A stretch of 64,000 bases of DNA from Marsupella aquatica (lineage: Eukaryota; Plantae; Marchantiophyta): NCBI GenBank assembly GCA_973895155.1, contig OZ316895.1:23830281-23894280 (forward strand), given 5' to 3'. Positions 2,930 to 52,178 of this stretch are shown here, piece by piece; the first letter of the stretch is position 1; each line of letters begins with the position of its first letter. The position numbers were made by a program, and so were the translations under genes. Below the pieces are notes generated by a model. That model made no database searches. It was not told the DNA's origin and saw only the letters and a program-made list of their open reading frames with translations.

Positions 2930-4537
2930 TTAACGCATTGTATCTGATACTCGATGGAGGCATCCTCCTGGCTGTCTATGGAAATGTAATGCATGCGTCA
3001 TGACAGTTGATTGCAATCCGAGTCTACGCCGTGTTGCAACTGCACTACTGCGATTGTTCCGGTAATGAAGCAAGTTCGGTGCATCATTATCAGAATCATT
3101 TTGTTCCTCCACTTCTAACTCCCCATCTTCATCTGTCCACAAATCATTTCTGCTAATAACAAAATTGTGTAATTTTGCACACATTAGTATCCAACGTACG
3201 AGCCACACACAATCTTTGTTCTCCTTCAGTTGAATCCGCATTTCCTTCAACGAATGCCAACGTGACTTCAGTACCCCAATGCAATGCTCATTTGTTACCC
3301 TGGCAGTTGCAACACACATGTTGAATTCCTCCTTCTCCTGGCTGCTCTCAGACCGTTTGTAGGAGCAAACCAAATGCTCCATTATCTGGTATCCGCTGTC
3401 TCCAAGCAAGTACTGAGTTCTTCCAAAAAGGTGTCCATCATTTTGTTTGCGGTAGAGTGCTGATCTTTTATAACAAGTGAGATCTGAACAAGACCCGGGC
3501 ATACCTGCATGATGCAAGTAGAGTGCAATCAGTGATCATCACATGAAGGTCTTTTCACATCCAACTTTATGATATTGCGACATGGCAAAATCATGTTATC
3601 GCGACATCGCGACATCATAGCGAAGAACATGCTTCATTATTATCCTTCTTGATAGTTTGGTAGTCAGACATGGCGACATCATAGAAGAAAGGAGAAGGAC
3701 ATGCTTACCAGTGTACATGTATAGGATCTTGCGTCTGTGATCACAAACAACTTGGGCATTTAGCGAGTACCTTGACTTCCTGTCAAAATAACATTCTCCA
3801 CCAGTTTTGGGTCTTTGAGACAAAGGGATTAACGTTCCATCTATCAGCCCAACGCAGCCAGGAAAACCTGTTTTGATAAACTCGTCTGAAATCCTTTGAC
3901 GCTCTGCTCTCTTAGGCCATTTCAAGTATTCCTTCAGGGCACACTCTAAAGCGGTCACTGAGCGGGTTGTGAAATTGCAAAGTGTCCCATTACTTACTCC
4001 CCATGTAGGAATGAGACGGGAAAGGCATGCACCATTACCATCATGACCTAGCCGATCAAGAGCCACTGCAAGCTGCCAAGCAACAGGTGCCTGTGGATTG
4101 TTTGATTCGCTTTGAAAAATGGGGTGCTCCTCAATGAGGTCAACAAGTGCATAGAACGATTCCCGGTCCATTCGAGTCATTTGCCGAAACTCACGAGGAA
4201 GCATACAATCAAAAAATTGGGTTACATATTCTTTTGACTTGTTGAAGAAGATTCTATCATTCAAAAATCTAGTGCTGTCCATGACAGCATACAATTCAAA
4301 CAACTCTTCAAGATTCCCCTCCAATTCTGACATGTCCCCACAATCATCAGAATCATCAGAAGAGTCCAGGTCTATATCTGAATCTGAATCTGAATCAGTG
4401 AGCTGTACATTGTCGCTGCTCATACAATCAGCACTTGAGTAAATTCCGTCATCATCAGAGCTTTCAAGTGCAATGTTCAGCTTCAGTGTTTCCCTCACAG
4501 CAATGAGAGCCTTCTGACATTCCGATATTCGAGGCAT
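2930..4537 (-). CDS. Harbinger/HARBI1-like DDE transposase, 2 exons (4537-3709, 3504-2930), ~467 aa, apparently intact
   Basis: Motifs FRQMTRM, GFPGCVGLIDGT (D1), YSLNAQVVCD, G/MPGSCSD across a GT-AG phase-1 intron, LLGDSGY (D2) and RVTNEHCIGVLKSRW (E). Confidence 0.9.
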
Positions 4538-4768
4538 GATGGCACTGAACAGAATTACAACATCATCAGGAACCAAAACAAGTGTGGAGACCAATCACAA
4601 TATTGCTAAAAGGGTTGTGCATCCATAATCTTCTTTGGTCAGAATTGTGCTCAAATAAAATCATCAGAAACCATGGCCATTGCCTATTGAAAGATTGGAT
4701 TACAATACAGAACCAAAATTGTTTGGCTCACTCATCATCGCTATCTAGATTATGGAATTTCAAAGTCC

Positions 4769-6604: not shown

Positions 6605-8687
6605 ATGGCGAGTGGTGAAGAAGAAAATATTATGAACCTGCTTCGGAGAACTATTTATGACGAAACACGACTGCGAGACGTTGCTGCGAAACTATGCCTT
6701 AGCTGGGTCGGAGTATCTATGTTGCTAGAGTTGTCGGAAATGGATCTCGAAGACATAATCCGGCGCGTGTTCCCAGTGGCACCTGACGGATTGGAAATGG
6801 CAATTAAGTTGGCAATTCGGCTTCAAAAAGGAAACTCTACGGATGGTAATTCCAACTGAATTTCACAGCAATGTGTTTCTCGTCAGTATCTTCTGGTTCT
6901 TGTTCTGGTTTGTCTTTTCGTTGAGTTTTTTCCTTTGAGCACCCCTCTGTTGCTGCTTTGTTTTCTTTGCTGAAAAGTGATCAAGGGTATCATGGACAGC
7001 AGCTGTCGCCCTTGCTCTGGCATTTGTTTGGAAAGCACTTTTGCAATTAAAGGTGTCCTGTGTCTTCCTGCTTTGCTAACCGATAAAGCATTTCTGCCGT
7101 GCCAAATTTGTAGGGCTCATTGCTCGAGTGATTATTGGATGACTTTCCTGTTTTTCTCATCCTCTTCAACACTTAGAGACCGATGTGTATGCAGAGGGAG
7201 CTCGACCTTCAAAGAAAGCAAAATTCCTGTCCTCGGAAGAAAGAATTTCTGCTAGAAGTAGCTATTTTGGGAAACTGTTGGAAGCCCCTGCTGAGCTCCC
7301 CGTAAGTGTCAATCAACTGAAGGAGTTTTTGTCCCTGACACCAGTAAAGCTCCCAGTACTCTATGAGCTAACTAACGAGAACTTGGGCCAGCCTAATCTG
7401 GTGGTACTTGATACTTCCGAAGGGGCGAGTCAATTGGCAATTTTTTGCGAAACTGTGTTCCGATTGATGAAACGTTCCCTTCCAGGCAATGAGGCCACCA
7501 GCTCACATGAATTGGCTACTCTCACTGGAGAGTTCATCTCGTTATTAAATGAGGAGGCTCCAGCAAACGGAAAATTACAAGGTTTGGACTGGTTACTGGA
7601 TTCACCGAATCCCCCGACTAGTACTGTAGCATCGCGACCACTAAAACCGCTATTAAGACCAGATTTTCAGCTGTTTGTGAGGGATTGTCTCATTCTCCGA
7701 TGGGAGAATAAGACAGACCGGGCACTTCGGCACGAGGCTGCAGTTGAGAACACCTCAAAATTAAAGGCATGGAGCCCTTTGTTCTATGGTAAGCTCCCTT
7801 ATGTGATTGGTGGTGGCTCCGGTGGAAGGCAGTTTCAATGGCTGAAGCTCTATCCGCGAGGCAAGGAAATTGTTTCTGAAAGTATCTCACAACTCTATGA
7901 CTTGAATATGTTGAGCGATGTAGCCAAGTTCCTACATAGCACCATTCGGATGCACTGTCTCCTACAGAAACTACAGGAAGAACTGGATAGTAACATCCCC
8001 TTGGCATTATATAGGCCAATAGCAAGAGGTGATGGTGGAGCAGTGACGATCTATCCTGACTGCGTGACGAAGGAAATCCCACGATTGATGAAAGATAAGG
8101 TGACCGCGATAAAATGCCTGTATGAAAAAATCGATGGTTCCAGGTACCTGATCCAACTTATATCCGCCCGATCATCCAGGGCTAAAACAGTATTGCGACT
8201 ACAACCTGTTGGTGACCCATCTGCAAAGCCTAAGGATTGCAAGGATTTAGTAAATGCCACGCATGACATGTTATGCGGCCTTGCGGACTTGCACATGAAA
8301 GGCTACACCCACAGGGACATAAGGTGGCCCAACGTTCTCAAAGTAAATGATATGGGTGAATGGAAATGGGTGATCATAGACTTGGAAGCTGCTGGAGACG
8401 ACAATGAAGTATGGGTTGGTGAGGACTTAACGGGTTGGGATGCGGAAACGTTGGAAGAAGACAATGACAAAAGGAAAAGATACACCAAGGGATCGGACAT
8501 GTACCAACTCGGGAAACTTATAGCTGAATGGCTCGATGACTTTTCTGAGGGCGGTAAGGAAGAACGTCAATTGATGAGATCCCGGGCAAAACAAATGCAG
8601 CAGGAACGTACAGCAGCAGCGAAGATGCTTGAGGATATCTGCAAGAAACGTTGCGAACGATGTCGCGTGTTTGGCACAAAGCTGTAG
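6605..8687 (+). CDS. Crinkler(CR)-like protein: helical/SAM-like N-terminal header, PD-(D/E)XK REase-like domain and atypical protein kinase; 2 exons (6605-6845, then 7177 or 7195 to 8687)
   Basis: The phase-1 donor GATG/GTAATT at 6846 matches both AG acceptors (7176, 7194) in frame. RPDFQLFVRDCLILRWENK is a PD...(E)xK-like motif. Kinase motifs are HRDIRWPNV, IIDLE and SDMYQLG, with no canonical Gly-rich loop. Confidence 0.65.
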
Positions 8688-10058: not shown

Positions 10059-11079
10059 CTACTTCATTGTCCACTGATTGGGAAATGATTCACGGTAAGC
10101 TGCATCTTGATCCCTGGCTAGCTGACTAACAGTTGCATCCGTGACACGCCCATTCAGTAGCCTGCGAGCCAGCCTATCCTTCACCGTTGGTTTCTTTTGC
10201 AAGAGAGCGGTCAGCCCACCTCTTGGCTTTTCTGTACGAGAGTCAGCATTGCCCCCTTCACCAAAAGCCCCACTAGGAGCCTCACCAAATTCTCCTAATC
10301 TAATTTGAGCAGTAGCTGCTTCTCTTAGGCAGGCCTCGTTGTGCTCTCTAGTTCTTTTCGCTCTATGTCTCCGTGCTAGTGCCTTGGCTTGTTCGTCCAT
10401 CTTCCTAACGTTCCCTATCGCCTGCTCCGCTAGCTCGACCGGGTCTAAGCTTTGATGACCTGGAAGGATGCCAGTTTCATCAGATTCGTCACCACCAGTT
10501 CCTGTCAACTGTCTCGCATTTTCTGTCTCGGGTCCAATTGCTGACTGCGCGTGCTTTACTTCTTCAGGAATAATATTTCCTTCATCGTCTCGTGCTCTTA
10601 TAGGCCCATGGAGTGGGCATTTTCGAAGATCTCTCCGTTGGCACAACCCTCCACTCCTCAGAGGAGCTCGACAAGGGCGAATTTCAACCTTTGGGGCTTT
10701 GTAGTACGATGCCCTTACGCTGATTTCCGCAATCTTCTCAACAGGGATCATGATATCATAGTCAACCTTCCCCAGGGATTCTCATATTCCATCCCCCATG
10801 AGTTGGCAGGGATGGCACTCTGACTGCCCCAAGTGTCCAGGAATGAGCCCCATGGCAACACCGGGGCTTCCTTCAGCAGATCTTGCTTGATACCCACTAC
10901 GTCCATTTTCTCCGAATTGCTTTTGATTTCTTCACTCTCCACTGTAGTCGTATAGCCGGAGCTGGGGCGTCAGCAGACCGGCTATTTTCAACTGGAGGAC
11001 TATGTGGAACAACTCCTATGTCGGTCAATAGATCTCCCTGTTCCCAAATTTCGACAACGAATTCCTCCCGGTGAGACAT
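10059..11079 (-). pseudogene. UVSSA: UV-stimulated scaffold protein A (UVSSA) 3' fragment with frameshift(s)
   Basis: UVSSA C-terminal motifs are present: APVLPWGSFLDTWGS, ENPWGR.DYD, the zinc finger CRAPLRSGGLCQRRDLRKCPLHGPI.ARDDEG, and YRESFPNQW. There is a 1-nt frameshift near 10766 and probably another near 10940. No upstream exons were found before TE debris begins. Confidence 0.75.
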
Positions 11080-11930: not shown

Positions 11931-12098
11931 GTAATGGGCTCGTAGACTATTGTAAGAACCTGGGGAGCATGACCATTCTCATTGTCACCACAGTCTAGCA
12001 TGACATTTGTCTAGATATCAAACTGATATCAAACCACTTAGATAGTGTGCCACCAGAGGTTTGGTGTACATACCTACTAGTGGCAAGAAGGGACAACG

Positions 12099-12780
12099 AT
12101 GTCTTCCAAGCCTATGGCGATGCCAACATTCTATTTTATCCCACCACTTGTGGTGACGACATTGTGTCAAGCGCAACATTCAGAATATCTTCAGCACAAT
12201 GGGCTTGCAGACTTTGTTTCGGGAGTTCGTTGGGACACTAAGAGTCATTCTAAGTCTGACATGATAGATTTCATCCGGAACTTTGACAGTGAACAATCTG
12301 AAACATGGGTTTGTGGGGGAAGAATAGACTTGAGTTTGGATTCTATCAAGAAGACATTCAAGTTGCAAGGGTCAGGGGAGCCATTTGAGCAAAAAGCAGT
12401 TTGATATAATCCAAGGTCATTCGCAGGGATTAAAAGGAACGACAATGGTTCTTACTCATTGCAATATTGCAAAGATTCCCTAATCAGAGAGAGGCTAGAG
12501 TTTCAATTGGGGGCTCTTCACTTTAAGGGGAGCAGGGCCGATGTGTCTTTGTGCCAGATAAAGCAAGTTGAAGAAACAAGTAGTAGGAAGAATTGGGGAG
12601 AATATCTCGGCGGGAGACTGATCGACCTCCTTTGCAGAGCCCGGAAACAAATCTCCAAAGGTAACATGACTTGCACTTACAATTTTGGATCCCATCTGCA
12701 AATTCTGTTGAGTGAGAAGTCCCCTTCAATTGTGTCTTTGCCAAGGCCACAGGTATTCCATTGGAAAACATCTACTCAAG
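12099..12780 (+). pseudogene. Decayed transposon-associated ORF, a distant relative of the N-terminal domain of ORF 536-2467
   Basis: ORFs 12099-12404 and 12459-12872 share a frame across one TGA. The pattern ...TFKL.G.G...Y...YC.D...R.RL.F...NWG.YL parallels ORF 536-2467. Confidence 0.45.
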
Positions 12781-13265
12781 TGGGTGTGGAGCCATGGAGT
12801 GGAAAACCACGGGGTGGAGGAGAACTGCCGAGGACAAAAACATCTCACAATGCATCTGCAAATTGTGAATGACGATGATGCAATGTCAGGACATGCAAAA
12901 GGAACTGTTGTTTCTAGTGTGCATGAGGGTGATCCATGTAGCAGTGGAGGACTTCTCGGGCTGTTCTCAACCAATGGAGCAGAGCCGCAAGGTCAACAAG
13001 ATGGTTCTTTTGTCCATGAAGACATTGAGTCTTCAAGAGACAGAACCTCTGTCGGGGGGTAAGGAACATGAAATGTCAGGGAAGACATTGGGTGAAGCGG
13101 AAGCAAAGCCTGGTTTCCAAAATACGTATCCCATAAGGGTGACCAGTACGTCCAAAAAAATAAAGTCGTAACACTTTGGTTATGAGAGAACTTTGACACA
13201 CCCTAGTGGCCATGTACCTTCTTAGGAGCACACTTTCCTGTTCTGAATCAGTTATCATGTTATTC

Positions 13266-13725
13266 CTAGTTTACAGTAATACAGTTTGTTCTGGCAAGGG
13301 ATGTAGAGGTCTTACCGTTGTTGAGGTTGAAATTCAGATGTTGGCTCTTGTCAGCCCATCCCCTCAACATACCTCTAATGCTAGAGGATCTCTTGATGGT
13401 CAAATCCTGGCTCAACACCAAGGCTTCAGTAGCAGTCCACCACCGTCTTTCTCTTTTCCCTGGTCCAGTCTTAAGCCCTTGTACAATGATCGCCTTTGCC
13501 AACTTCACCCACTCACTGGTGACCCCAGTCAAGATCTTGGCAATAAGCCTCATCTTCAGAGCCTGTGCTTGTTCCCTGAATGGCAGAGCCCCGAGTCCTC
13601 CCATTCCCTTGGATGCAGCAAATGTCCTTCCAGCCCATGAGAGCTTTTTTATGGTCATTATTCTGTGACGGTCCCCACACAAACCTCCTACAGATCTTCT
13701 CAAGTACCATCTTAAGTTGTATCAA
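13266..13725 (-). mobile_element. L1-clade LINE ORF2 fragment (post-RT region), frameshifted
   Basis: EKICRRFVWG...KKALMGWKDIC, then a frameshift to K.MGGLG....Q.QALKMRLI.KIL....EW, which is the typical plant L1 post-RT segment. Confidence 0.8.
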
Positions 13726-14299
13726 AGTAAATTTTTAACCATAACCTTACCATCTCAAATCTGTTTGGGCTGGAATTTTTCTTTCAGCTGCCTAGCTTGG
13801 GGACCTACTCACTAAAAACAATTGAAGAAAATAATTTTACCATAATTTTTTTTATAGCTTTATCGTCTCAAATTAGTTGGGCTGTAAGTTTTGTGCATCT
13901 AGCTTTGGGACCTACTCACTAAGAATATTTGGAAAAAATAAGTCTCATCACCGCTATCAGATGAATTAGGTGAGAAAAGAGAAAGAAAAAAGACACTCAG
14001 AAAAGAGATGGGAAAAAGGAAATATAAAAGTGACGTGGGGAGTGAGCGGAAGAAAAGGAAACTCGTGGGTGGCAAGAAGACGGGAGAAAGGTAGAAGAGA
14101 GATAACATATAAGGTTTATTTAAGCCACAAGTAAGTTATGAGCTCTTGCCTAAAAAGACTGGGGTGCACATAATAAATTTGATCCGCAGATTTCGAATAG
14201 CAAGTCAAATACATTAGCGAGTAGAGAAGGGGCAAATGATTTAGAGATTGACGCTCATTCTCCTGAGATGGTGCTTATTGATATAGAGATTGACGCGCA

Positions 14300-14871
14300 T
14301 TTTCCTGAGATGGGGTCACAAGCTCCGGCTAAGATAAAATAAAGAACGCTGGAGGGTTTAGGTAATTTTATCATCTCAATCCTTTCATTTTGAAACAATG
14401 CTTCTGGGAAGCCCATACATGCAAAGGCCTCTTGTCAGCTCTTACTGACCCAATTCAGGACGTTCTTCTTTCCGGGAGAAGAACTGATGGACATTTCCTG
14501 AGATGGGGTCAGAAGCACTCGCTACTAGGAAGAAAGAACGCCTGAAGGGAGGTACTTTTATCAGCAAAATCCTTTCATTTTGAACAATGCTTCTGGGAAA
14601 CCCATAGACGCAAAGGCCTCTTGTCAGTTTTTGTAGATCCAATTCAGAACGTTCTTCTTTCCGGGAGAAGAACTGATGGACATTTCCTGAGATGCTATCA
14701 AAAGCACTTGCTATGATACAAGGAAAGAACGCCTGAAGAGTGGTACTTTACAAGCAAAATCATTTCATTTTAAGACACTGCTTCTGGGGAGCCCATAGAC
14801 GCAAAGTCCTCTCGTCAGCTTTTAGAGATCCAATTCAGGACGCTCTCCTTTCCGCGAGAAGAACTGATGGA
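14300..14871. repeat. Three-copy ~190-bp diverged tandem array
   Basis: CAATTCAG.ACG.TCT.CTTTCCG.GAGAAGAACTGATGGAC recurs at ~14451, ~14640 and ~14831, with the intervening sequence also shared. Confidence 0.85.
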
Positions 14872-16175
14872 CTGCCCGATTTCGATGAACCTACCCTGTG
14901 ATAGAGCATTCTCCTTTCGTGGTTTTCCTTCAGAAGAGAAGCACAACTGACTGCGATTTGTATCAGTCATGCAACCAATCAGGCCAGTATGGCCAGACCA
15001 GTAGTGGTAAGACAAATAGTAAAAGTAACACCAACCGCCCTCAGACACGATGTCTTCAGTGATACAGATGGTCAGCCATGCCCCTTCACACATCTGTATT
15101 TTTTTTTCGAACTATCGTCTCTTTTCCACAATGTGCCCTCGTGCTCCTCGGGCTCCTCGGATGAGTCCCCCGCAGTTCAGGGTGCTGTCGATGGAGAGCT
15201 TCTCATCTATCATTGATCGCTTTTGTCTCGTTCACCACGAAAACTGAGATGCATGATTGCAAATTTTGAAGTTCGCGGGTGAACAATACCTGAGGACGTG
15301 TATTTCAAGTACAGATGACCAACAGAGACATCTTCAGGAATTAAGTTCTGTAGACAATTGCAAATAGTTACACTGATACGAACAGTTCAATGAGAAAGAA
15401 AATTCTCTCGTCGAAGAAGTTGTTTTCTGAGTCCTCTCTGCAGGATGTACACCTGAGAATGGCATTAGTTCTACCATCGCCCACGGCACTACAATTGACC
15501 CACCTGTAAAGTCCACTGCCGCACCTAACCGTGCCATCGACCTCTGCTCGTCGAATTTCCAGAAGAATTTAGGGTATATACTACTTCCGTAATTTGCGAC
15601 TGGGGGCCTCAAAGCGCGAAGTTGGGTTGGTAGGACAACATGCCGAACTTCTTGTCCATGTGACCCAAGACGATATATTCTGGTCGTCAAAGCCAAATAC
15701 AAACAACCGAACGTCAGAGCACAACTGAGTAACGTAACATTTCGCACATCCGTGATTTCAACTGTCAAGAAGTAACTCAAAAAAGTTTTTTGTTATATGT
15801 CGTCCCGTAAATCTAGAAATTTATTGTCTCACAATTAAACACTTTGAAAATCATTTTCTTCCCGATGTGTTTGTCAGTGGCAGTACCTGAGGGGTTGAGA
15901 ATGGCTTTTAGCTCCCCTTGCTCGCAAAATTGGGGACTGGATTAGAGTCTTTCAGGCCTGGTAAGGGCTCGTTAAAGCGCCAAATTGCATAATCTCACAG
16001 CTCCTGTCACAGATCTGTCATCGTCGATGGCTGCAATACGCTTCCAACATGATGCTTTTCGACCGAATGCCCTTCCTTGATCAAGCAAACAAGGAAAACC
16101 TGATTTTATCTGGGCTGCAAGTGAGCACCGCTTTAGAGTCACTTTCCACCCAGTGCAACACAGCTTTCATTCTTG

Positions 16176-19100
16176 TCACCAGTAATCACCACACGAACAT
16201 ATGCCATCTTTAAAATGGTGAAAGCGAATTGCATCCCTCGCTATAATCTCACGTCCTGTCACCTTAGAGATAAACTTGGTTGCTGTGTGGCAATCTGGAC
16301 AGACCCGAAGGTTCTTCTTTATACGAATTGTTTCCCCCCGAGGTATGTGCATGAGTCCGTAAGCAATAGCCAACTTCTCACTGTGAGAGCAAAGAGCTAA
16401 TTCTTTATCCTCCTCATCGATATCATGCAACACAAGCCTGGTATCTGGAATATAGCCTTCAGACTTCAGTTCTTCAGTCAATTTATAGAGCTCACTATAT
16501 ATCGCCTTCGACTCAGGGTGAGAAGTATCACCTACAACAAATTCATGGATCTTGTTATCAACCTCGATCCAGCTACGACCTGGCTCCTTCCGAACACCTC
16601 CCTCCTGCATCATGGTGCGCACCAATGACTTCTTTTCCCACTTACCAGCTGCAGCATAGATGTTGGAGAGGAACACATATGCAGAAGCATTGTTGAGGTC
16701 CAACTTGAAAAGCTCTTTAGCGGCAAACTCACCCAACTCCACATTAGCGTAAGTTCTACAAGCCCCAAGCAGGGCTGCCCAAGTTACTCGATCTGGTTCA
16801 ATTGGCATGTCAGTAATGAAGAGCCTTGCTTCCTCCAAGTGTCCAGCCCGCCCAAGAAGATCCACCATGCAGTTATAATGCACAATGTCAGGCTTGATGC
16901 CATAATCTTTTGTCATAGCTGAAAACAGTCTACGACCATCATCAACAAGGCCTCCATGAGAACAGGCTGAAATCACTGCCACAAAAGTAGCCCTGTTGGG
17001 CTTCACAAAGTGCGCATTCATTCTTCTGAAGAGTGCCAGGGCTTCGCGCCCACATCCATAGTCTGCAAGTCCTTTGATCATGGTATTCCATGTGACTACA
17101 TCACGTTTCTCCATTCTGTCAAACACTAGTCGGGCGTCGTCTAAATTGCCACTCTCTGCAAGCATGTGAACCAGTGCTGTGCCCACACGCAAATCCGACT
17201 CAAGTCCTGCTTTCCTAGCTTGGCCATGAACCTCCTTCACCCACTCCAAAGCCCCCGCACTCGAAGATGCATTGAGAATACTCGCAAAAGTGAATGCATC
17301 TGGTTCGAAGCCTTCGCGTCTCATTTCAAGAAACAGTCGATATGCTTCAACATCTCGACCACTTTCAGCATATACTCCAATCATAACATTCCACGTGATG
17401 CAATCTCGATTAGTCAATTTTTCAAATATTCGCCTTGCCTCCATAATGCGTCCACACTTTGCATACATCTGAAGGAGGGCAGTCCCTACACGCACATCTG
17501 ATTCAAACCCGGCATGTCGAATACACCCATGAATTTCTTTCCCCCATTTGAGAGCTAAAGGGCCGGCACATGCCTTCAGGATGCTCGCAAAAGTGAATGC
17601 ATTTGGTTCAAAGCCTTCCCGTCTCATTTGGCGAAACAGTCGATATGCTTCATGCCCACATCCATGTTGTGCAAGTCTATCGATCATTGCCGTCCATGTG
17701 ACTACATCGCGTTTCTCCATTCTGTCAAAAACTCGTCGGGCGTCATCTATACTGCCACTCTCTCCATATATGTGAACCAGCGCAGTGCCCACACGCAAAT
17801 CCGACTCCAGTCCGGCTTTGCGAGCATGGCCATGAACGTCCTTCACCCACTCCATAGCGCCCGCACTTACAGAAGCTTTGAGGATAATTATGTAAGTGAT
17901 TGCATCTGGTTCGAAGCCTTCGCGTCTCATTTCAAGAAACAGTCGATATGCTTCAACACCTTGACCACTTTCTACACATGCTCCAATCATTGTGGTCCAT
18001 GTGACAATGTTTCGATTAGTCAATTTTTCAAATACTCGCCTTGCCTCCATAATGCACCCACACTTTGCATACATCTTGAGGAGGGCATTCCCTACACGCA
18101 CATCTGATTCAAAGCCGGCATGTCGAATACACTCATGAATCTCTTTTCCCCATTTGAGAGCTATTGGGCTGGCACATGCATTCAGGATGCTCAGATATGT
18201 GATCTCATTAGGCTCCACACCTTCTTGGCGCATTTCATTGAGAAGTTCTAGTGCAGATTCAGCATGATTACTCTTAGCATATCCTACAATCATGTTGGTC
18301 CAAGTAACAACACTCTTCTCCTTCAGCTGATCAAAAACTCGGCGTCCCATCAACAATTGCCCACATTTGATGTACACATTCAGTAGGGTTACCGCCACAA
18401 ATAGATTCTTATCCATGCCACTCTGGATGATGTGGTCATGCACCTGCTTGGCTGCTGAAAGGTCTTTCTGTTTCGAGCACATTTGCAGAACTTTAACAAT
18501 TGTGTACGGGTCTGTTGTAATGCCTCGTTGCAGACGATTGTGCAACACAGCAATTGCTTGACTTGTGGTCCCCGCCTTATGCATGTCCGTGCTGTCATTC
18601 CCCTGTGAGAAAATTCCCTCCGTGAGCACAGTTGCGCACGTTGGTCCTGAACATATTCCAGCGGAATGTCAGTTGGAAATACCTGTTTAAATAGAACCAC
18701 AATCTCCCCTGACCTTTAGCTTCAACAGCAGAAGCACGAAGACACTTTCGATAATTTAGCTCGCAAATTCAAATTTACCATTTCCAGCAGTGTCGTTGGT
18801 AGCATTTGCAACTTGCTTCACCAAACTGGCTCGAACGCTTTTGATTCCATCCTTTAATGCAATGGCCTTTGCCACCGTCACACCATCCCTATTAACTTCA
18901 GGAGAATCAAAACTTTGCCCAATAAGCACATTTCGACCCTGGAAAAGAGTTACAGATTCACAAAGCAATGAGTGACTAGTTCAAGGATGTCACACACCTA
19001 CGACACTAAAGATAATTGTATAAGGGGCAGACAAATTACGTTAAGCAGCTGTCGTCTATACCTTTGGGCCCATGGGAACCTTCACAGCATCTGGTAATTG

Positions 19101-19354
19101 CTCACCACCTTGGAGTATAAGAGCCCCTGCCTCGACTCCAAACCTGATATCCTCCCGCCCATAATTTCGCACCCGTTGCGACCTGCTTGAATTCTGCAAT
19201 CGCAACTCCCAGTCAGACCAACAAGGGCCTGCTAATTGCGTTAAGGACAACGCTCGGGTTCAACTGCTATGGTCTCAAACAGAGTACAAATGAACGGAGA
19301 TTTACGATTCACCTGTGATTTGAGAGATAAGTGGTGAACACTACTTCCTAACAT
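16176..19354 (-). CDS. PLS-class PPR protein with E1/E2/DYW cytidine-deaminase domain (putative organellar C-to-U editing factor); predicted exons 19354-19313, 19193-19062, 18938-18779, 18646-16176, with an HSP60-derived N-terminus
   Basis: P-L-S repeats, PGRSWIEV (PG box), HSEKLA, CPDCH and terminal CSCGDYW. The long ORF has no ATG at its start but a CAG acceptor at 18649-18647 joins in phase to the upstream exons. Confidence 0.92.
18600..19354 (-). other. HSP60: Degenerate 5' exons of mitochondrial chaperonin-60 (HSP60/CPN60) fused to the PPR gene
   Basis: The spliced translation RNYGREDIRFGVEAGALILQGGEQLPDAVKVPMGPK/GRNVLIGQSFDSPEVNRDGVTVAKAI...SLVKQVANATNDTAGNG/PTCATVLTEGIFSQG aligns with the HSP60 consensus RNYAAKDIKFGVEARA...VTMGPKGRNV...DGVTVAK...VKQVANATNDVAGDGTTCATVLTRAIF.EG. 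Confidence 0.88.
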
Positions 19355-21304
19355 GCTACCTAGACAGTACAATCCGACCATGTCTACTAGCGACTCAGTG
19401 GATAAAAACCTACTGGTAGAGGACGGAAAATTAGGAACTGAGGACCTGAATAATCCAATCTATCCGGGAACAATTGAGCATTGGAGAGGAGGGTCAGTAA
19501 CTCACACATAGAAGCTGGAGTAACATTCCATTTCCTATGGCACGGTAGAACTAATTGAGAACGTATTTCATTTACACAAATGTGTGCTTGCTGTTACCCA
19601 CGGCGAAGTCAAAGGGTCTCGCTTGGGTATTCAAATATAATCTCACGATATTTCTATTCATTCTCCTCTGCTCGGGCCCCTCTTCGGAACCCTGAAATTA
19701 TTCGAAAGTCAGGTCAACTAAGGTTAGGGCTTAGTACGCACACCATACTCACTTGTTGAAAGGCACATCTCCTGCAAGATGAAACGGGCGGTCAGCAGCT
19801 AAGATGGAGAATCGGATACACTAGCTATACAAAAAAACTTTCCCCGTGCTCGCTAAACTAGAAAACGTTCACAGAAACGGTTGGATCGATTGTTGATAAG
19901 CAGTCGACAAGTCTGCCAGAGAGTATTGAGGGAGCAATTTAGGTCGATCATTTCGGTACAACCTAAGAACAAAGTTAACTATCTCCATATTGACATCAAT
20001 CTTCGCTGCCTCATAGAAGGCAGTGACTTCTCCGTGAATTTCTTGAACTAAACCATTACACGGCAAATCATCTTCATTGATTGATTCTCCACCGCGAAAA
20101 CACTCTGCCAATACACCGCCCACCCGTAACTTTGGAATTCAAAGGTAATGCTCCTATGTAGATTCATTATTAAACGCTGACAGTGAAACTTTCATAATCT
20201 CGCAGCATAGCCGAATCTCTTCACCCACAATAAAATTCATATTCAATGCAGACGTGCGCAATGTGACACGAGGAAAGAAATATTGAAGAGGCTGTATATG
20301 TTTTCAAAGGCCTAACTCCGCAAATCAAATCCAAACTCCCAGTCAGCAAATCCATCTGATTCCACTACTTACCATGACCTAAATCTCATGACCTAACAAG
20401 ATGTCCGGGATCTCCCATCTACTACTGTGACCCAAACTACAGATCCTGGGTCATACATAAACCTCAGGAAAATCTTGCACTCACTAAGGCCCTGTCGCAG
20501 CAGGCATTCCAAAGACGACGACCCAAAAGAAGGCATTAAGAGAAGGGTAGAAGAATAGACTGACAGCCAAGAATTGAAGAGAACACGAAGTAACCCACCT
20601 TGCAGCAGACACAAAGGCTGTCGCCGGCCTCTGCATTGTCGAAGCTCGCTGCCTGCTGCTGACTGCTTGTGTAATGAATTGAGCATGAGGCAAAACTGCA
20701 AAACCAGGAACAAACTTATCTCGGCCACCTCTACACTGCTTGTACCCGTCTTGCTGGAATGCTGGGCTGAATATGCACCCAATCCAGATGTCAGCAGCCT
20801 TGACTGCATGGTCCTCATAACTAAATGTCTAAGCCATATATTTCAATCGGTGATCAGCGAAAGTGCGGCTTCCACCATACATGTACCTGAGTATGGTTCA
20901 GACGAGTGGGAAATGCATTTATGGATGCGTCAAAAGTTCCTGCCAGGCGTTTCTAGTCGTCTTCTCAACTCTTTTCCAATATCAGCACCAGTAGTTCATC
21001 TTCTACCGAAGGTAACGACCAAAGTGTAAATAAGGAACCGTTTTCCTCCATTCTGACTTTATAAAGCAATCTTTTCCTTTTATCAGTCAGCTCTTGCACA
21101 TTGTCTCTCTTATTGTTATGTGCTGCCACGCTTGTACCTTGTTTGGGGCTATTTTGCCTTGGTTTGCTTTGTTACATGTTTTCAGTGCTCAAGAGCGCAC
21201 AAAATGTAGAATTTTCAACTGATTCCCTTCGGTGTCTACATGTGTGTCTGACTGTAGGTTGAAGAGGGTTTAGTAGCTTTGAACGTTGGAACATGTGCGG
21301 TCAT

Positions 21305-21445
21305 GTTCCAATTCATGATGCCCACTACTGATGGGATTGACAACAAACAACTTGATGTGGTTGTGGAGTATTTCTCACATGTTCCAATGCATGATACCCA
21401 CTGCTATTGGGATTGACAACAAACAACTTGATGTGGTTGTGGAGT
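21305..21445. repeat. Two-copy ~75-bp tandem duplication
   Basis: GTTCCAAT.CATGAT.CCCACT.CT..TGGGATTGACAACAAACAACTTGATGTGGTTGTGGAG occurs twice. Confidence 0.8.
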
Positions 21446-22329
21446 TTTGAAAGTGCCTAGTATGGAAAGGTACATATCTCCGTTGTGCGAATAAAATTGT
21501 CGTTCCTTTGATGTGAAGTGGCCACGAGATATTTGCCAAGATTGTGGAAGGTCATAATCTTTTTCGACGATATTCAGTGTATTGTGGTCATAGTGGTTTC
21601 CGTCTTCAAATCTATTTTTCTGGGGTACTGTAATTGAAGGACACCACACCCAAGGGCCGAGTTGGCGGCAGACGTAAGAGAGCATTTACAAGGCCTACTT
21701 TGGTTTGAGTAACTGAGAACTGGATGTCTTGGCGGTCCGAGCAGACAAAAGACAGCGACATCCCAGCAGATTTGAGTAGAGAAGCTCAGAATGTGTTCCG
21801 GACTTCAAAACTGGATAGACAATTGTTGTGAAGACCAATTATGCTCTATATCTCAATAAATTTCGAAGTATGTCCGCACTTATAAGAATATTGAAGACGT
21901 TGCTTCCCAGATATCAAATCTCAAACCTTCGAAAAACAAATGCATGATTCGTGATGAGTTTAGTAAATGTACTGATTTTGAGTGGAAGTCAGTCAAAAAT
22001 GGGCCTCAGACCTGCCATGGGCGAAAGGAAGGTACTAAAGTAAAACCTCCATGGAAGAGAAACGTACCAGCCTATGTAGCCTCGTTTTATCTACTCATTA
22101 AGCACAGCCCAAAATTTTCAATTGTAGATCTGAACACCATTGTCCGGAGCACAGAGTGGAGGGAGGAGTCACCAGGGAATTCTGTCACAGCAGAACGCCC
22201 TGGTCAGCCTGGGCCAGTGCTCAACGTAAGATAACGCACTCCATAGCTGGAGATCTCCTAATGAAAGCCATGGGGAGAACTCCCTCCTTAGAGGGCTTGA
22301 CCCAACACAGAAACCAAAGTTAACTGGCT

Positions 22330-24886
22330 TTATTTGGCCAATTCCTGAGCTGGATGAATGTAATCATGCTCTGAAGGTTGTGAAAAGTCTTCCGGCATGG
22401 ACTTCCAATGTAAAGAAGGTACCCAGTCAATGTGATTGGTGATCTCGTTCATCAACTCAGAAAGCAGAACCTTGCTCCCACTGGCACTTAGATGCATGCC
22501 ATCACTGCAAACAAATTACAATGGAGCCATCCAAATATCAGCAAAGATATCCTAGCCTCAGGGCTTGCCATTGCTATAGCATCCAAGATTGCCAAACTCT
22601 AAAGCGCCATCCTGCATATTTTCTCACCAGCAATGATGGAATTGTGCAAAAACCCTAATGAGGGAGATGAGAAGGAATTCCACAAATTCTCAATACATCT
22701 GTGCTGCGTCTTACGTCAGGCAGGAACCCCAGTCATCGTTTGATAGCTGAATCGCTGTCCATAAGTCTACAACACCAACCCCTGCTTCTGATGCGGCAGC
22801 TTTACATGCAGCAGCATACTGGCCAGCACGCTCATTCGTTCGATCTGGATATTTTCGTGCGTTCTCCCCATGTTTGGCACTGCAAATAAAATAACGACTG
22901 AGCATCTCAGACATTGCTCTGAGCTCCAACATTGGTACACATGTAGGAAGAGGAACGAATAAGCACTTGATAGGTGCAAATCGGTCCCAGAAAAACTTTG
23001 AAATGCAAAGTGTACCTCAGATGCTTAATTCTGTTTTCCTCATGGATGGGTGGTGCTGTGATCAGTACGACTCGAGTTGTGTCTGAAAGTCCCTGAAATC
23101 CAGTCACAAACACAAAAGCATTTAGTCGACGAATCGGTAAAGCTGTACCAGTCATGGCATGTGAATTGCTCACTAAGATATTTGAGTGGAAATCAAAGAC
23201 AGAGACAAGAGAGAGACCAACAACAGGAAGTACGGTAAAGCATTCACAAAACATCCCACTCGAAGCTCAACCTTCAAATAGGAAGCTATTTTGATTAGGT
23301 TCCCCTTAAACTCGTCGATAGGCACAGCTTGACCCTTGCCACTCGGGACAGGAACTGCAGCATCATTTGCACCAAAGAAAACCACGACGAGAGCCGGTTG
23401 GGTAGGCATGTCCTGGAAGAAATGACACAGTGCTATGTTGAAGCACCACATGCTAATCATGGTGTGGAAAAGCGATAAGCAGAGCAAAATCAAGAACTCA
23501 GGCAGCTGTCTAAGCAGAACTCAGCAAACACCGATTGATATCAGGAGGGCTGCAATGGAAGGCAAATATATGTTACCTTCGCCCATATAGAATGCAAATC
23601 TCTGGTGTACTACATCAGTAGAGATATCATCTCTTCGTCATGCATTGTGATAGAAACAAAAACAGCGAAGCTGTGTGGAAAACTTGTCTAAAACTTATTG
23701 CTCCTCAAGACATAGATTCTTGCTGACTAACATAGAATACAGTTTATCAACTTTTCATCGACCGGAATTGGGTTTCTCTTGAAGTTATATTCCTTCAATT
23801 CAAACACCTAAAGGACACGGACACATCTCGGTTATCTCCAACTGTTGTCTCAACGGTAGCACTATTAGACCTAAGATTATCCATCCGTGAGCACAATAAC
23901 TACAACATCAAGGATAACATCTACATATTTCCTGTACGTGGCTCACTATAAAACGCCGTTTGCAACACGAAAACGAACGCAGATTTCTCTTACCTTCGGG
24001 AAAATCTGATATAGCACAGAAAGAGCCCTACGAGTGTTCCATCCACTGTAACCCCTGAGTAAGAAGTCCGCCTGCAAAAGTCCAAAGAGAGGGTGTGAAA
24101 AGAGGGTAAATCCAATTTGAGGAAACTAACTCGCGGGTATCTAGTAGGTATACACTCTAACTCACAGCTTCGGTGCACTCAATTTATAATTTGCTTTAAG
24201 AAAACTGTAAACTTTATGTTTAACTCTGTCCTTCAATGAAAAGAATCTAGGTTGCGAAATTTTCTTGCTCTGGAGGATTCCATGAAGCTCAAAACGGGAA
24301 GAATCTCATTCAAATTTTCCTCCAGAGAATAATCCGATGCTACTGATCTAGTGGCCAGATTTCCTTTGTGTGCACTGCCGAAGATCAGGGCTCATCATAT
24401 CTCACACTACTGAGAACTAGCCTCACATTAGATTTGTTCATACGAATTGACTTTGCTGTAATGATTCGGGAACCCATCTTCAGGTCGCCCCGGGGCTTCC
24501 GTAGGAGAGAACTCTAAGACGATCCCCAACGATGGGCTCATTGTGATCAATATAACTTGGGAAATGGCACATTGCCTACCTTCAGGTCCGATTTCTGAAC
24601 GAGCAAACGAAGAGATCTCTCATCGGGTGCATATTCTAGCTCTCAGACTCGTTACAGGGGACGACGATCCACGAGGAGAGCCAGAGAAACACGATTTGGA
24701 CTAGACTCCAGATCAACAAATGCGTTGGGAACCAAAAACAAAAGGAACAGAGTGCAAAAGAGTATGCGTATGTACCTTCCGTTGATAGAGATCCTGAAAC
24801 GCAGCTCCCCATCCACCCAGCTCATACGAGAATTGGGTCATGGAAGCTCCGAACAGCACAAACAAGGGCCTCTGATGCGCTGCCAT
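22330..24886 (-). CDS. SGNH/GDSL esterase (IAH1/CPRD49-like), 6 exons
   Basis: Block I FVLFGASMTQ (catalytic Ser), RGYSGWNTR, FFGANDA, LITAPP and DGMHLS...WVPSLHWKSMP. GT-AG exons lie at approximately 24886-24776, 24075-23993, 23412-23272, 23092-23015, 22881-22715 and 22506-22330. Confidence 0.9.
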
Positions 24887-27390
24887 AGTCACCCACAACA
24901 GAAAACTTTGGGCAAAGAGTCCTGAGCATTGGCCAGAGTCCGTCAAAATCAGCGAGAGTCCAGCCCAGCGTTAGCTTACAATAGTTTCTTAGAGTCACAG
25001 CTCCCATGCGAGTTCCTAGCCGTGGAGGCTGGCGAGCTGCACGCGTAAAGCACAATCGATTTCAGTGCAATTCCGATAGATGCACATCGGCACCAACAAC
25101 ATGATGATGGGGAGTTCAGATGACTGAAGTACATAGATCCCTGCATTTGCGACCATTGTACAGGGAGCTCTGCCCAAGTGCACCCTCCATAAGTGCAAAC
25201 TCTGGGTTACTGGGCGATCTTTCTTCCAACGAAAACTCCCATATACACAAAGGGGGTTGGCGAGAACGGCCTGCAATGATTACACACAAAACGGTCAGAT
25301 GTCTTAGTGATAGAATCTTCACCGATCAGTCAGATGAATCCATTCATAATTAATATAAAATTACAACTCAATAGCAAAGCCTCTCTTAAGGTTACCTCAA
25401 ATCTGAGTTCCTCATCGAAAGTCTACTGGCCACAAGAACCACTACAGTGGCTTAAAATCACATATTAAACTAAGGACAACTATAGGGAGCCTTCTCAGTG
25501 GGTGACGACCGAAGCTCAGCCATTTAGGATTCACACATGCATTCGGTGGATTGAATCAGCTTGTGGGTAATAGAATAAAAGACGTTCAAAGATATCTGCG
25601 GTAACCCCGATGACAATAATCTAACCTACTTCTCTATAGCTACCTCACGAGCATCAGATGGGAAGCATCATCAGCCTCGAGGTGGAGCCCTTTCGACGCG
25701 GGTGCAGAGTAGGAGCTTTGTGAGCCATAGATTCCAAACGCTTGGACCGTCAGGAAAGTCACCTCTCCAAAGCATAGTTCACTGTTTAAGGTTAGCAAAT
25801 TATTGAAACAACGTAGGCACCTTAAAGTAGGTTTCCAGAGTCTCCATGGACAGCGATTGTCAGTACTGAGGTATCCCCAGATCATAAGACAAATGGACAT
25901 ACGGAAATTAGGGACAATTGTTGGCTGGAGACATAACTATTCGCGAGTTCAAAAGACAGCGATGCTGACATTGCTGAAGGCCAGCTTCACCGCGATCAAG
26001 TGGCATTCAGTTGCGTAGATGGGATAAGTAATGGTCATGCGCCTGAAGGAGGGGTCCGGCAGCTGTCTGAGGTACTGAGAGAGGTGCTAGATTCCTTAAT
26101 ATGTTGTACTCGCCATTCCAGCAAAGACTCAATGGACAAAGCAAGAAAAGAAAGGAGCGTGTTATAATTGCGAAGTGTTTGGAAAATCCCCAACCGTTCA
26201 ACCGGAAAAACCTATGGCCTTCAGTTCTCAATTCCTGAGTGTCATTTTACTACAGAAAAATCCTGAAGTCAAGTCATCCCCAGAAAGCTCACCCTAACCA
26301 CTACAGTGGCGACTTTCCACCCAATTTATGGCCAGACAAGAGATTTATTTTGATCGCTTGATAGCAGATCTTACGTAATGCAAACTTCTGCTTCAAATAG
26401 CAACCAACATCATAGACCGAGATACACTATCGTGTGACTGACACCAGAATTGCTCACAGAGAAAGGCGTCTGAAAAGCAACGGGCAGCTAACTTGATTGC
26501 TTTGTGGGGAGGAGACGAATCTCACTGAGCTTCTGCACACAAGACGTCGGGGTTGACGGCAACAAATCCAAGCCCCGTCCCTCGCCGACCTCGAGCTATC
26601 TAGCATTCCCCCAAAAGACCATCATCATACCAAATTCAAGCCGCAATCCAAGCAAGCAACACTCGAAAGGGATTCACGCCACCGACAAACCCCTAAATCC
26701 CCTCATTCTCTCACCTGGTGGAGCAGCCATTCCCAATTCCGGACAACGATCTCTCTGTCATCGACCGGCCACCATCACGCCCTAAACCTTCCCAGCAACT
26801 CGAATCGCTCTCCTCCTGCTCACGGATCCTCGAATTCCAAAGCTTCACGGATCCTCGAATTCACAGCCAGAATTCTCTCTCTCGACGCAGAAGCGAATTG
26901 AGGCCCCAACCACCTCAACTCTCCAATCTCTGCAAACTCCTTCAGCATCTGCCGTTTCCGAGACCAAAAGAGACCAATTTGCCACCACAATGATAGCTCC
27001 ACGAAATGCCTAATTAATCCTTCACCTCTGGCCTGTTCTGGCCACTCCTCTACTCCTCGAACAACAACGACAAAGGACGCTCGAGGCTCTTCAGTAGCTA
27101 AACGCTGGGCGACCTTCTGCCCACGCCAAATCGCAAAGGGATACCGGGCTTGATTGTGCACCGCGACGTCCCTTCGTTTTTTCCCGTTGGGGGGTTTAGG
27201 GTGCCCGGAGAAGGAGTAGACGTGGCCACGAGCGTTTGGTGATGCCCGAATTACAGGGGACGGGGTCCAGAGGTTTGCACGGCAAATCGCCAAAGGATCC
27301 CGGGCGCGTCAGCCGTCTCCACTGTCATGTGCGGGCTTTCCCCCGATTTTTCCCCAGTGCGAATTTCGAGAATCTCAGAGCGAGAGGAGC

Positions 27391-27630: not shown

Positions 27631-27760
27631 GATTTAGTCTCTCAAGCTGGGAAGATTACGAATCCTGACAAGTGAGGGGAGAACTGGACATAAGACGGCG
27701 CAGAAGCTTTCTGGGATTTAGAAGGCCATCGATTGCACGAGTAGACGCTCGAAGAGAACG

Positions 27761-28567
27761 ATGCCTTTCTATGCTGTTGCCAGAGGCCATTGCCCTGGCG
27801 TTTACAACTCCTGGGACGATGCCAAGAAGCAAGTCGAGCGATTTCCTAATGCTCGACACAAAAAATTTACGTCGAGAGAGGAAGCTCAGGCGTACATCTC
27901 CGAGCCCTCCGCTGCCGGAGTGTTCATGCAGAATGCAGCAGCTAGAAGTGGGCAAGCTGCGGGACAGGGTGCTGTTCAGCAGTCCGCGAGAGGGCCACCG
28001 AGGTTTAAGGAACCTTCAAATTGCGACGAAGAGCAGGAGTTTGCCGCGGATTATAGCAGATTGAAGCAGGGAGACCTCTCAGATCACCCCATGGATTCGT
28101 CGACATTCGTGGCCTTTACCGATGGCAGCGCCTTGAGTAATGGGAGGTCGAATTCGAGGGCTGGCTGGGCGTGCGTGTTTCCTCATAACCCCGAGTGGAA
28201 TCGAGCTGGACCGCTGGCTGGAGAGCTGCAGACGAACAATCGAGCTGAGTATCGGGCTGCGATTGAGGCGATGTTGCGAGCTAATGTAGAGGACCCGGCG
28301 AAAGTGAAGCCGCTTTACATCTACTCTGATAGCATGCTGCTCATCCGCTCCATGACTGAATGGATTCCGGGATGGATAGCACGAGGATGGGTCAAAGCTG
28401 ATGGAGCCCCCGTTTTGAACAGTGATTTGTTGAAGTGGTTGCTGAGGGAGCAGGGTGAACGACGCATCTTCTGGACGCATGTCCTGGCGCACACGAATGG
28501 AAGAGACTGGAAGTCGAAATGGAATGATTTAGCAGATCAGATGGCCAAGGAACAGGCACGTCAATAG
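27761..28567 (+). CDS. Ribonuclease H1 (Cauli_VI hybrid-binding domain plus eukaryote/fungal-type RNase HI domain), intronless
   Basis: N-terminal FYAVARGHCPGVYNSWDDAKKQVERFPNARHKKF. Catalytic motifs FTDGS (D), TNNRAEY (E), YSDS (D), HVLAH (H) and WNDLAD (D), plus the basic protrusion WIPGWIARGW....G.PVLN.DL. Confidence 0.93.
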   Translation: MPFYAVARGHCPGVYNSWDDAKKQVERFPNARHKKFTSREEAQAYISEPSAAGVFMQNAAARSGQAAGQGAVQQSARGPPRFKEPSNCDEEQEFAADYSRLKQGDLSDHPMDSSTFVAFTDGSALSNGRSNSRAGWACVFPHNPEWNRAGPLAGELQTNNRAEYRAAIEAMLRANVEDPAKVKPLYIYSDSMLLIRSMTEWIPGWIARGWVKADGAPVLNSDLLKWLLREQGERRIFWTHVLAHTNGRDWKSKWNDLADQMAKEQARQ

Positions 28568-45145: not shown

Positions 45146-45718
45146 CTACAGCTCCGACAATGCCCAAGCACCCCTTTTTTTCAACCCCTTCTGCATAAAG
45201 TCCATTGCCTCGGCCCTGGTTTTGAAGGACTTAAACTTGCAGTCACTAAAACCATAGACTTGTTTCTCACATTCATCCCATGTCCCATAAATGCCTGGCT
45301 GAAATCCATGCACAACTGCATAGAATTTATGCTTCTGCCCTGGTTTCCATGTGGAATTTGGGCCCTCAATATAGTTCACTTCTGAACCCGGTGAGTTGAT
45401 TTCTTCCTTAAGTAAGATGCCTGAGCCCTGGACATTGGCGTTGGTCCCTGATTCAGTACTGATGAACTCCACCTTTTGGGTTGAGTGTTGATTCTGGGGA
45501 TTTGTCTGCTCTTCCAACAGGTGTGCTGGAAGCTCTGGTGCACTTGGTTGAAGCTTTGGAGCTGCATTAGATGTTGAATCAAATGTCTGCAAATTTATGT
45601 ATAGGTGGTCCCGAGCACAGTCGAGCACATCTGAGACCCTACGAAAGAAGGTGCCCAACATTGCCAGGATTGCACAAATGCAGATCAATAAGAACTGAAT
45701 GATAGTGCTAAGCTTCAT
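45146..45718 (-). CDS. MULE accessory gene: hydrophobic N-terminus and C-terminal Cauli_VI (RNase H1 hybrid-binding-like) domain, 190 aa
   Basis: KFYAVVHGFQPGIYGTWDECEKQVYGFSDCKFKSFKTRAEAMDFM matches the Cauli_VI consensus. The N-terminus IIQFLLICICAILAMLGTFF is hydrophobic. There is no RNase H catalytic domain. Confidence 0.8.
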   Translation of the reverse strand: MKLSTIIQFLLICICAILAMLGTFFRRVSDVLDCARDHLYINLQTFDSTSNAAPKLQPSAPELPAHLLEEQTNPQNQHSTQKVEFISTESGTNANVQGSGILLKEEINSPGSEVNYIEGPNSTWKPGQKHKFYAVVHGFQPGIYGTWDECEKQVYGFSDCKFKSFKTRAEAMDFMQKGLKKRGAWALSEL

Positions 45719-45969
45719 TGCTTACGTTCCTGCCCTTCTCCACTAGAAATTGATCCTTGAACAACAACAGCGAGAAGCAACAACAACAACCCGACTTTGT
45801 GCTCAGTCCTTCACAGCACCACCACCAGCAATAGCCATAGCTACTTCACCCCAGTGCTAAAACATTCCTCGCACATCTGCTCTTGCAGGACTGTCCTTCC
45901 ACAGTTGTGCTAACATTCAGGAAGGAGCTTGGATAAGCGAGAGTCGATCCACTCCCCGATCCACTCACC

Positions 45970-49467: not shown

Positions 49468-49481
49468 GCTCTGATACCAAT

Positions 49482-51998: not shown

Positions 51999-52178
51999 GT
52001 TAGATTCCCGAGTTCAGAAAATAGAGGACTCAAGCTGATCGTGAAGCTAGACTGACCTGAATCTCGTGGGATTCTCGAGAGTCAAGACCATATAGGTGTA
52101 TGAGTGTCTATCGGTTAGTCTCTCAACTCAAGAAGAATCCTTTCTGAGCTAGCTCGTGAATCTCTTCAGAGCCCGATA

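Follow-up and report, generated by a model that had tools for sequence, protein, structure and literature searches.

A PPR-DYW Gene Fused in Frame to the 5′ End of a Mitochondrial HSP60 Gene in the Liverwort Marsupella aquatica

Results

The window, by which we mean the whole 64-kb stretch of Marsupella aquatica DNA that was analyzed, contains on its minus strand an open reading frame (18668–16176) for a PLS-class PPR protein with E, E+, and DYW domains. Ahead of the repeats this frame encodes a linker that is native to a liverwort PPR-DYW family (18606–18510, with an internal methionine, Met138, at 18584) and is 66–75% identical over 32 aa to the Calypogeia proteins P0093, P0116, and P0106. 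The linker is followed by 17 PPR motifs of canonical length that fall into Pfam PPR families (18509–16791; four L1-S1-P1 triplets, then L1, S1, P2, L2, and S2), by the E1 and E2 motifs (16790–16587; Pfam E_motif, E 3.9e-20), and by a PG box, E+, and a DYW deaminase domain with intact HSE, CPDC, and terminal DYW, which ends at the stop codon (16586–16176; Pfam DYW_deaminase, E 7.8e-43). The PPR-E-E+-DYW architecture proposed in an initial annotation of this DNA was therefore upheld by Pfam. A P/L/S array ending in P2-L2-S2, E1 and E2 motifs, the PG box, HxE and CxxC signatures, and the terminal DYW place the protein in the DYW subgroup of the PLS class. The genes adjoining this one look like host genes, and the window also contains remnants of MULE and Harbinger-type transposases.

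The 2.5-kb PPR-DYW exon contains no stop codon and no intron; many homologues are likewise single long open reading frames over this region. Canonical fifth and last code residues occupy 10 of the 11 P and S motifs according to the PPR code, and the same code predicts a target of the pattern A-n-Y-G-n-G-A-n-G-U-n-G-Y-n-U-n-n-n-C. The PPR array contains an internal duplication of 606 nt (84–86% identity) with a dN/dS ratio of 0.42 between the duplicated blocks (p 0.0008). This ratio indicates purifying selection, which may predate the fusion described below. Among 120 listed homologues, the highest identity to the PPR part is 73%, to a Calypogeia protein, and in a phylogenetic tree the PPR part groups with all 22 Calypogeia proteins as opposed to 7 moss proteins (support 99/97), which points to a leafy liverwort as the likely source.

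Upstream of the PPR-DYW module we could trace the 5′ end of a mitochondrial HSP60 gene. Exon 1 (20636–20599, 38 nt) contains the HSP60 initiator ATG at 20636, opens the presequence (residues 1–30 of Calypogeia HSP60 as tblastn query, E 1.9e-9), and ends at a GT donor at 20598. After intron 1 (20598–19772, 827 nt) follows a mini-exon of only 19 nt that continues the presequence (exon 2, 19771–19753), as judged from a tblastn piece near 19770 (E 0.007) and from a joint in a relative's contig. Intron 2 (19752–19194, 559 nt) leads to exon 3 (19193–19062, 132 nt), which encodes the end of the presequence, an RNY (−3R) processing site assigned by analogy to Arabidopsis Hsp60, and the beginning of mature HSP60. 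Exon 4 (18938–18779, 160 nt), set off by intron 3 (19061–18939, 123 nt), encodes a decayed fragment of mature HSP60 with 77% identity to Calypogeia HSP60. Intron 4 (18778–18647, 132 nt) interrupts a GNGPT motif in the place of GDGTT, and the first nucleotides of exon 5 (18646–18607) are still derived from HSP60, up to a fusion point at about codon 130. All four introns are of the GT-AG type. Joining the five exons (20636–20599, 19771–19753, 19193–19062, 18938–18779, 18646–16176) affords a single open frame of 2820 nt and 939 codons with a stop only at its end, in which 132 gap-free HSP60-derived codons precede the 17 PLS motifs, E1, E2, and the intact DYW domain. The 5′ flank (20720–20637) also resembles HSP60-type transcripts, in their 5′ UTR region; 20720 is the end of the compared stretch, and the homology may extend beyond it.

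This gene model differs from the initial annotation mainly at the N-terminus. The three GT-AG introns named there are present, and the corresponding four-exon join is indeed open (2805 nt, 934 aa). Its first exon (19354–19313), on the other hand, has no similarity to HSP60 and lies within HSP60 intron 2, so that the N-terminus written there was incorrect; the actual HSP60 start is found 1.3 kb upstream of it. The amphipathic moment of that earlier N-terminus is 0.29, versus 0.57 for the corrected leader. We also considered exon 19354–19313 together with an in-frame ATG upstream of it (19381), and rejected it as the main start; it may yet be used as an alternative exon of minor importance. Since the corrected exons comprise the whole presequence and its own ATG, they strengthen the idea that an HSP60 5′ end was captured.

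The assignment of the leader to mitochondrial HSP60 is far beyond chance. Exons 3 and 4 match chaperonin-60 structures in the PDB (best E 4.9e-5 and 5.2e-13, respectively), with mitochondrial HSP60s ranking first, in agreement with the HSP60 assignment of the initial annotation, and are identical to Calypogeia fissa HSP60 in 89 of 114 positions. Residues 1–132 as a whole align without gaps to Calypogeia fissa HSP60 (P0003). The change of GDGTT to GNGPT noted in that annotation was borne out by the alignment. Because residues 133–579 of HSP60 have no convincing tblastn match within the 64-kb window and the ATP-binding motif is altered, the chimera cannot be a chaperonin: it contains only residues 1–132 of a protein of about 550 aa with equatorial, intermediate, and apical domains.

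The two parts of the leader have diverged to different degrees. In the presequence, 27 of 30 residues (1–30) are identical to Calypogeia fissa mtHSP60, and its physical character is preserved, with a net charge of +6, zero acidic residues, and an amphipathic moment of 0.57 as against 0.60 in Calypogeia. The mature part (residues 31–130) retains 77 of 100 identities, and 20 of 80 columns that are invariant in four plant HSP60s are altered, including GDGTT. In comparison, three other plant HSP60s share 88–89 of 100 mature residues with Calypogeia and only 12–13 of 30 presequence residues. The usual pattern, a conserved mature part and a variable presequence, is therefore reversed in the chimera. 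Taken alone, the difference between the two parts of the leader does not reach significance (Fisher p 0.19), and a simulation of neutral evolution gave a chance of 0.06–0.33 for three or fewer presequence changes. Arabidopsis Hsp60 matures directly after the tyrosine of the same −3R site (PMC4986872). The residue that follows RNY in the chimera is G, as compared to A or S in the consensus cleavage motif.

At an amino acid divergence of about 20%, the ATG, the mini-exon, and all eight splice dinucleotides of the leader are intact. We simulated neutral substitution at matching divergence (5000 runs per setting, substitutions only, single copy) and found that ATG, open frame, and all eight splice dinucleotides survive with a probability of 0.03–0.10. 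This value is suggestive and not decisive. Furthermore, 9 of 10 classified exonic differences against public runs are nonsynonymous, these ten being a selected, nonrandom subset of 449.

To compare the exon plan with transcripts, we used RNA-type runs of other organisms. Of six such runs (shares 0.05–0.08) four were compared (X1–X4), in addition to two of four larger runs (X8 and X9). The RNA-type contigs of the relatives are about 85–90% alike, and some cover 20720–20598; most likely they are HSP60 transcripts of other species. In one X1 contig, 20598 and 19193 are separated by 18 letters, corresponding to a mini-exon of matching size. The joint of intron 3 occurs in all four runs, and that of intron 4 in one of the four, among the joints listed. 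These joints confirm the exon plan of the donor and tell nothing about expression of the chimera; no joint bridging HSP60 and PPR sequence appears among those listed, all from contigs of other organisms' runs, and this absence counts neither for nor against a chimeric transcript. The leader thus shares with Calypogeia fissa HSP60 collinear residues 1–132, and with the relatives' transcripts common intron joints.

Where the fusion lies can be stated rather precisely. The HSP60 alignment stops at codon 130–132, the linker of the PPR family begins at about the same position, and the two homologies meet at a single in-frame point in exon 5, at about 18607. The end of HSP60 homology inside the PPR exon, as proposed by the initial annotation, could therefore be placed near 18607–18600. 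In four contigs of X1 the match to the window begins at 18607 and extends downward only; their upstream sequence is different and, when read in frame, resembles the family linker found in five homologues. A joint in X4 with 39 letters on its shorter side would fit HSP60 homology ending at 18607. On the PPR side, about eight codons of the family linker are retained upstream of Met138. A search for homologues of the junction region yielded none (0 of 1 candidates).

The continuity of the locus was also examined in the two larger runs. One X8 contig spans 18812–18500 with zero differences, and thereby extends more than 100 nt to each side of 18607; a second covers 20720–18964, again with zero differences. 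As X8 may come from the same sample as the window, these contigs argue against mis-assembly and do not represent a second population. X9, a run with another organism code and from another study, contains near-identical pieces of the introns of this copy (0–9 differences per contig), and no junction-spanning contig among the matches listed. We conclude that the PPR-DYW gene fused in frame to the HSP60 5′ end is a real chimera, in which the donor's ATG, targeting peptide, and introns are joined in frame to a coding region of unrelated origin.

The HSP60 piece is absent from all 120 PPR homologues that we compared, and no PDB match was obtained with the N-terminus of P0056, the closest protein in Calypogeia. 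When exon 4 was used for a weak search among longer proteins, only Calypogeia fissa HSP60 was recovered (1 of 30 candidates, 77% identical). The best 150 representatives for exon 4 are all shorter than 580 aa, and none of the nine that we inspected is a PPR fusion. A 27-residue match in a metagenome locus was embedded in unrelated-looking DNA and was discarded as chance. By a rough pattern for the PDF motif, 10 of 22 Calypogeia and 1 of 7 moss proteins match; the product of exon 5 in the chimera does not, and Pfam made no such call. A PDF-type module may have been removed from the front of the PPR protein by the fusion.

The window contains a single copy of the HSP60 5′ end. In X8 and X9, individual positions of exon 4 are covered by as many as 10–11 contigs, and HSP60 exons together with introns are spanned by long contigs of 10–20% divergence, for example 19250–18900 (44 differences, 17 gap letters) or 20628–20319 (54 differences). 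Low-depth contigs of the relatives contain odd joints, either from the mini-exon to the region of intron 4 or from exon 3 directly to exon 5. These contigs indicate that several recent copies of the HSP60 5′ end exist; summed contig depth was not taken as a copy number. Around the leader, no pair of terminal inverted repeats was found within 12000–26000, and no flanking direct repeat stood out.

Discussion

Because the two homologies meet in frame within exon 5, we propose that an older front end of the PPR gene was replaced. The initial annotation had suggested that a retro- or DNA-copied PPR-DYW gene acquired its promoter, introns, and mitochondrial targeting signal from a duplicated HSP60 gene. 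The capture of 5′ exons, introns, and presequence from a duplicated mtHSP60 gene and the exonic junction are supported, and a DNA-level route is likely. A retro-copy finds no sign at this locus, since four introns persist in the HSP60 part and the PPR linker is retained; for the same reasons replacement of a front end is likelier than the gain of a first one.

On the basis of these features we consider it probable that the chimera, a PLS-E1-E2-DYW gene with an HSP60 leader, encodes a site-specific mitochondrial C-to-U editing factor. By DNA-level recombination, the front end of the PPR gene would have given way to exons 1–4 of an mtHSP60 copy together with 40 nt of its exon 5. Transcription would start from the HSP60 5′ region, with splicing as in HSP60, and the HSP60 presequence would direct import and be cleaved at RNY. 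Some 100 HSP60 residues would be left behind as an inert spacer, retained solely because they preserve the frame, and the protein would edit one or few mitochondrial cytidines that match the predicted target pattern.

A rather unlikely alternative is a recent neutral accident that left no working product, in which a decaying 5′ duplicate of HSP60 came to lie in a PPR-DYW gene, its frame stayed open by luck, and the gene is either not expressed or yields, from Met138, a protein that lacks a targeting signal. Initiation at Met138 could indeed produce a leaderless PPR protein. The mature HSP60 piece evolves in a neutral-like manner, judging from the predominance of nonsynonymous changes among the ten listed differences and from the altered invariant columns, and other copies exist, some with odd joints in the relatives' contigs. 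A survival probability of 0.03–0.10 per copy is not tiny, and since several diverged copies exist, a single surviving frame by luck is likelier than the single-copy simulation says. Against this reading, the 132 codons of the leader are free of gaps, whereas the diverged copies have many. The ATG, the mini-exon, and the eight splice dinucleotides have outlasted the divergence of the protein sequence, the junction is in frame, and the long PPR-DYW exon has kept both its catalytic and its code residues without acquiring a stop.

It is also unlikely that a multicopy mobile element of the Pack-MULE or Helitron type captured the HSP60 5′ piece and delivered it into the PPR gene. Such a route would agree with the number of distinct contigs per place and with the long diverged contigs in two runs, as well as with the MULE and Harbinger-type transposase remnants in the window. 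The leader, however, is not bounded by terminal inverted repeats within 12000–26000, occurs only once in the window, and is flanked by apparent host genes; the extra copies might just as well lead sister PPR genes or be HSP60 paralogues. Delivery by a mobile element alters the origin of the fusion, not necessarily its function. Finally, an assembly artifact in which a PPR gene was wrongly attached to a broken HSP60 locus is highly improbable: this genome is repetitive for PPR genes as well as for the HSP60 5′ end, but a separately assembled contig crosses 18812–18500 without a difference (in a run that may be the window's own sample), and the join is in frame and lies where both homologies end.

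Our preferred reading, recombinational replacement of a PPR front end by an HSP60 leader, has precedents in other gene families. Plant cytochrome c1 reportedly gained its presequence by exon shuffling (Long et al. 1996, as cited in PMC7456531). Like cytochrome c1, the chimera would derive mitochondrial targeting from the 5′ exons of another nuclear gene. It differs in that it received a ready presequence and has its junction within an exon, whereas the donor of cytochrome c1 is reported to be a cytosolic enzyme, GAPDH, with an intronic join.

The literature describes exon shuffling as a recognized source of targeting peptides (PMC7456531), and nuclear sdh3 as having taken presequence, intron, and part of the gene from a chaperone, namely hsp22 in Rhazya and Gossypium or hsp70 in Arabidopsis (PMC4045975). 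As in sdh3, insertion into a mitochondrial chaperone gene or fusion with it has left the chaperone presequence, intron sequence, and a mature piece ahead of a new coding region. The recipient differs, since sdh3 had newly moved from the mitochondrion and was signal-less, whereas the PPR-DYW gene has long been nuclear and has relatives with front ends of their own; the donor differs as well, being HSP60 with four introns instead of hsp22 or hsp70. The SOD1-RPL32 chimera of Malpighiales obtained its transit peptide from a duplicated SOD1 gene, with plastid import established by GFP in Populus (PMC8018952). It resembles the present case in that a duplicated nuclear gene for an organelle-targeted protein supplied both the targeting peptide and introns. 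It differs in that a plastid ribosomal protein was re-equipped after organelle-to-nucleus transfer, in a single event and outside an expanding RNA-editing family. Bryophyte PLS-E-DYW editing factors, represented by the Physcomitrium DYW-class PPRs (PMC3858427), share the PLS triplets, P2-L2-S2, E1, E2, PG box, HSE, CxxC, and DYW end with the chimera, which differs in its N-terminal 132 residues of HSP60.

Borrowing of presequences from chaperone genes is thus already known for organelle-to-nucleus transfers, and the use of this device by PPR-DYW genes is new here in that we have not found it in print. No HSP60- or LHCB-led PPR-DYW gene turned up in the accessible literature, a coverage from which subscription journals are mostly absent. 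A 2026 survey of editing factors in four liverworts mentions HSP60 zero times in its main text, and its supplements could list such fusions (PMC13386178). The number of PLS-class PPR proteins varies widely among liverworts, with expansion of the PLS class (PMC6865856). How new PPR-DYW factors in such lineage-specific expansions obtain their organelle address has been little studied. The present locus displays donor exons, introns, ATG, and fusion point together, and in it a preserved address stands next to a chaperonin piece in decay.

A parallel may exist in Calypogeia, where 7 of the 22 PPR-DYW models begin with an LHCB transit peptide, these being unconfirmed gene models. Residues 2–89 of one of them, P0085, match residues 4–97 of the LHCII precursor (E 1.6e-18), and its first 90 residues match 7 of 120 homologues including itself, all within the 22 Calypogeia proteins. 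An Atlas search with residues 1–200 of P0085 returned generic PPR clusters only. In the tree of the PPR proteins, where 15 of 27 inner branches are open, the seven LHCB-led proteins may form one clade or several, and the count of one change holds only relative to the moss group. The LHCB-led models suggest a matching route to the plastid. As a tentative generalization, which we regard as possible and not yet as probable, PPR-DYW genes of leafy liverworts might on repeated occasions exchange their own front ends for 5′ regions from genes for abundant organelle proteins, HSP60 for mitochondria and LHCB for plastids, with the leaders then spreading through the family. If so, one recombination would re-address an RNA-reading and deaminase module between organelles, providing a general engine for fast turnover of editing factors, and the diverged HSP60 5′ copies would head a subfamily of mitochondrial editors. 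If the pattern holds widely, the target organelle of each factor could be read from its leader, which would help to pair hundreds of liverwort DYW proteins with their editing sites. A weak Pfam match to the chlorophyll a/b-binding family (E 0.02) was also observed for the Calypogeia protein P0051.

N-Terminal Regions of Related PPR-DYW Proteins

Seven gene models for PPR-DYW homologues in Calypogeia fissa (P0085, P0051, P0088, P0092, P0030, P0013, and P0111) begin with an LHCB transit peptide followed by the start of mature LHCII, which together form the N-terminus of each predicted protein (residues about 1–90). Judged by sequence, these LHCB-led models are a putative plastid counterpart of the HSP60 capture in the window's gene. 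Another Calypogeia fissa model, P0075, has a methyltransferase fragment at its start (residues about 36–110; Pfam Methyltransf_25, E = 1.4e-4), which would represent either a further capture or a fused annotation. By a rough pattern match, remnants resembling a PDF motif lie N-terminal to the PPR array in 10 Calypogeia proteins (P0013, P0030, P0050, P0071, P0075, P0084, P0090, P0111, P0112, and P0116); the same pattern finds no such remnant in the window's gene.

Partial HSP60 Copies

Across the HSP60 5' exons and introns of the window (18650–20720), the public sequencing runs X8 and X9 contain many diverged contigs. This diversity points to several recent partial HSP60 copies, and in RNA-type contigs from relatives such copies are joined at aberrant splice sites. 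Around the segment that the initial annotation had proposed as exon 1 (19354–19313), and that the corrected model places within intron 2, the number of X8 and X9 contigs is far higher at 19325–19399 than in the remainder of this intron, with 7–10 contigs at position 19350. Given this excess, the segment is either a small repeat or a part of the HSP60 intron that is more conserved than the rest.

Surroundings of the Chimeric Gene

A 71-nt direct repeat (92%, 21302–21448) precedes the ATG of the chimera by about 700 nt, and a degenerate tandem repeat with three copies of a unit of about 190 nt lies downstream of the gene (14237–14904). The upstream neighbor (about 22300–24000, minus strand) contains exons resembling those of an SGNH/GDSL esterase, and the downstream neighbor is a DUF2043 gene (10059–10781, minus strand). 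Remnants in the window comprise a DDE_Tnp_4 transposase (2930–4594, minus strand), a MULE transposase (42860–43765, plus strand), a copia-type reverse transcriptase (47989–49560, minus strand), and two ORFs with an RNase H1 N-terminal domain (27722–28567, plus strand; 45146–45721, minus strand). Two further ORFs are located on the plus strand: one of 514 codons matches a fungal-type protein kinase (7143–8687), and an intronless one of 706 codons encodes TPR and SET domains (52119–54239).
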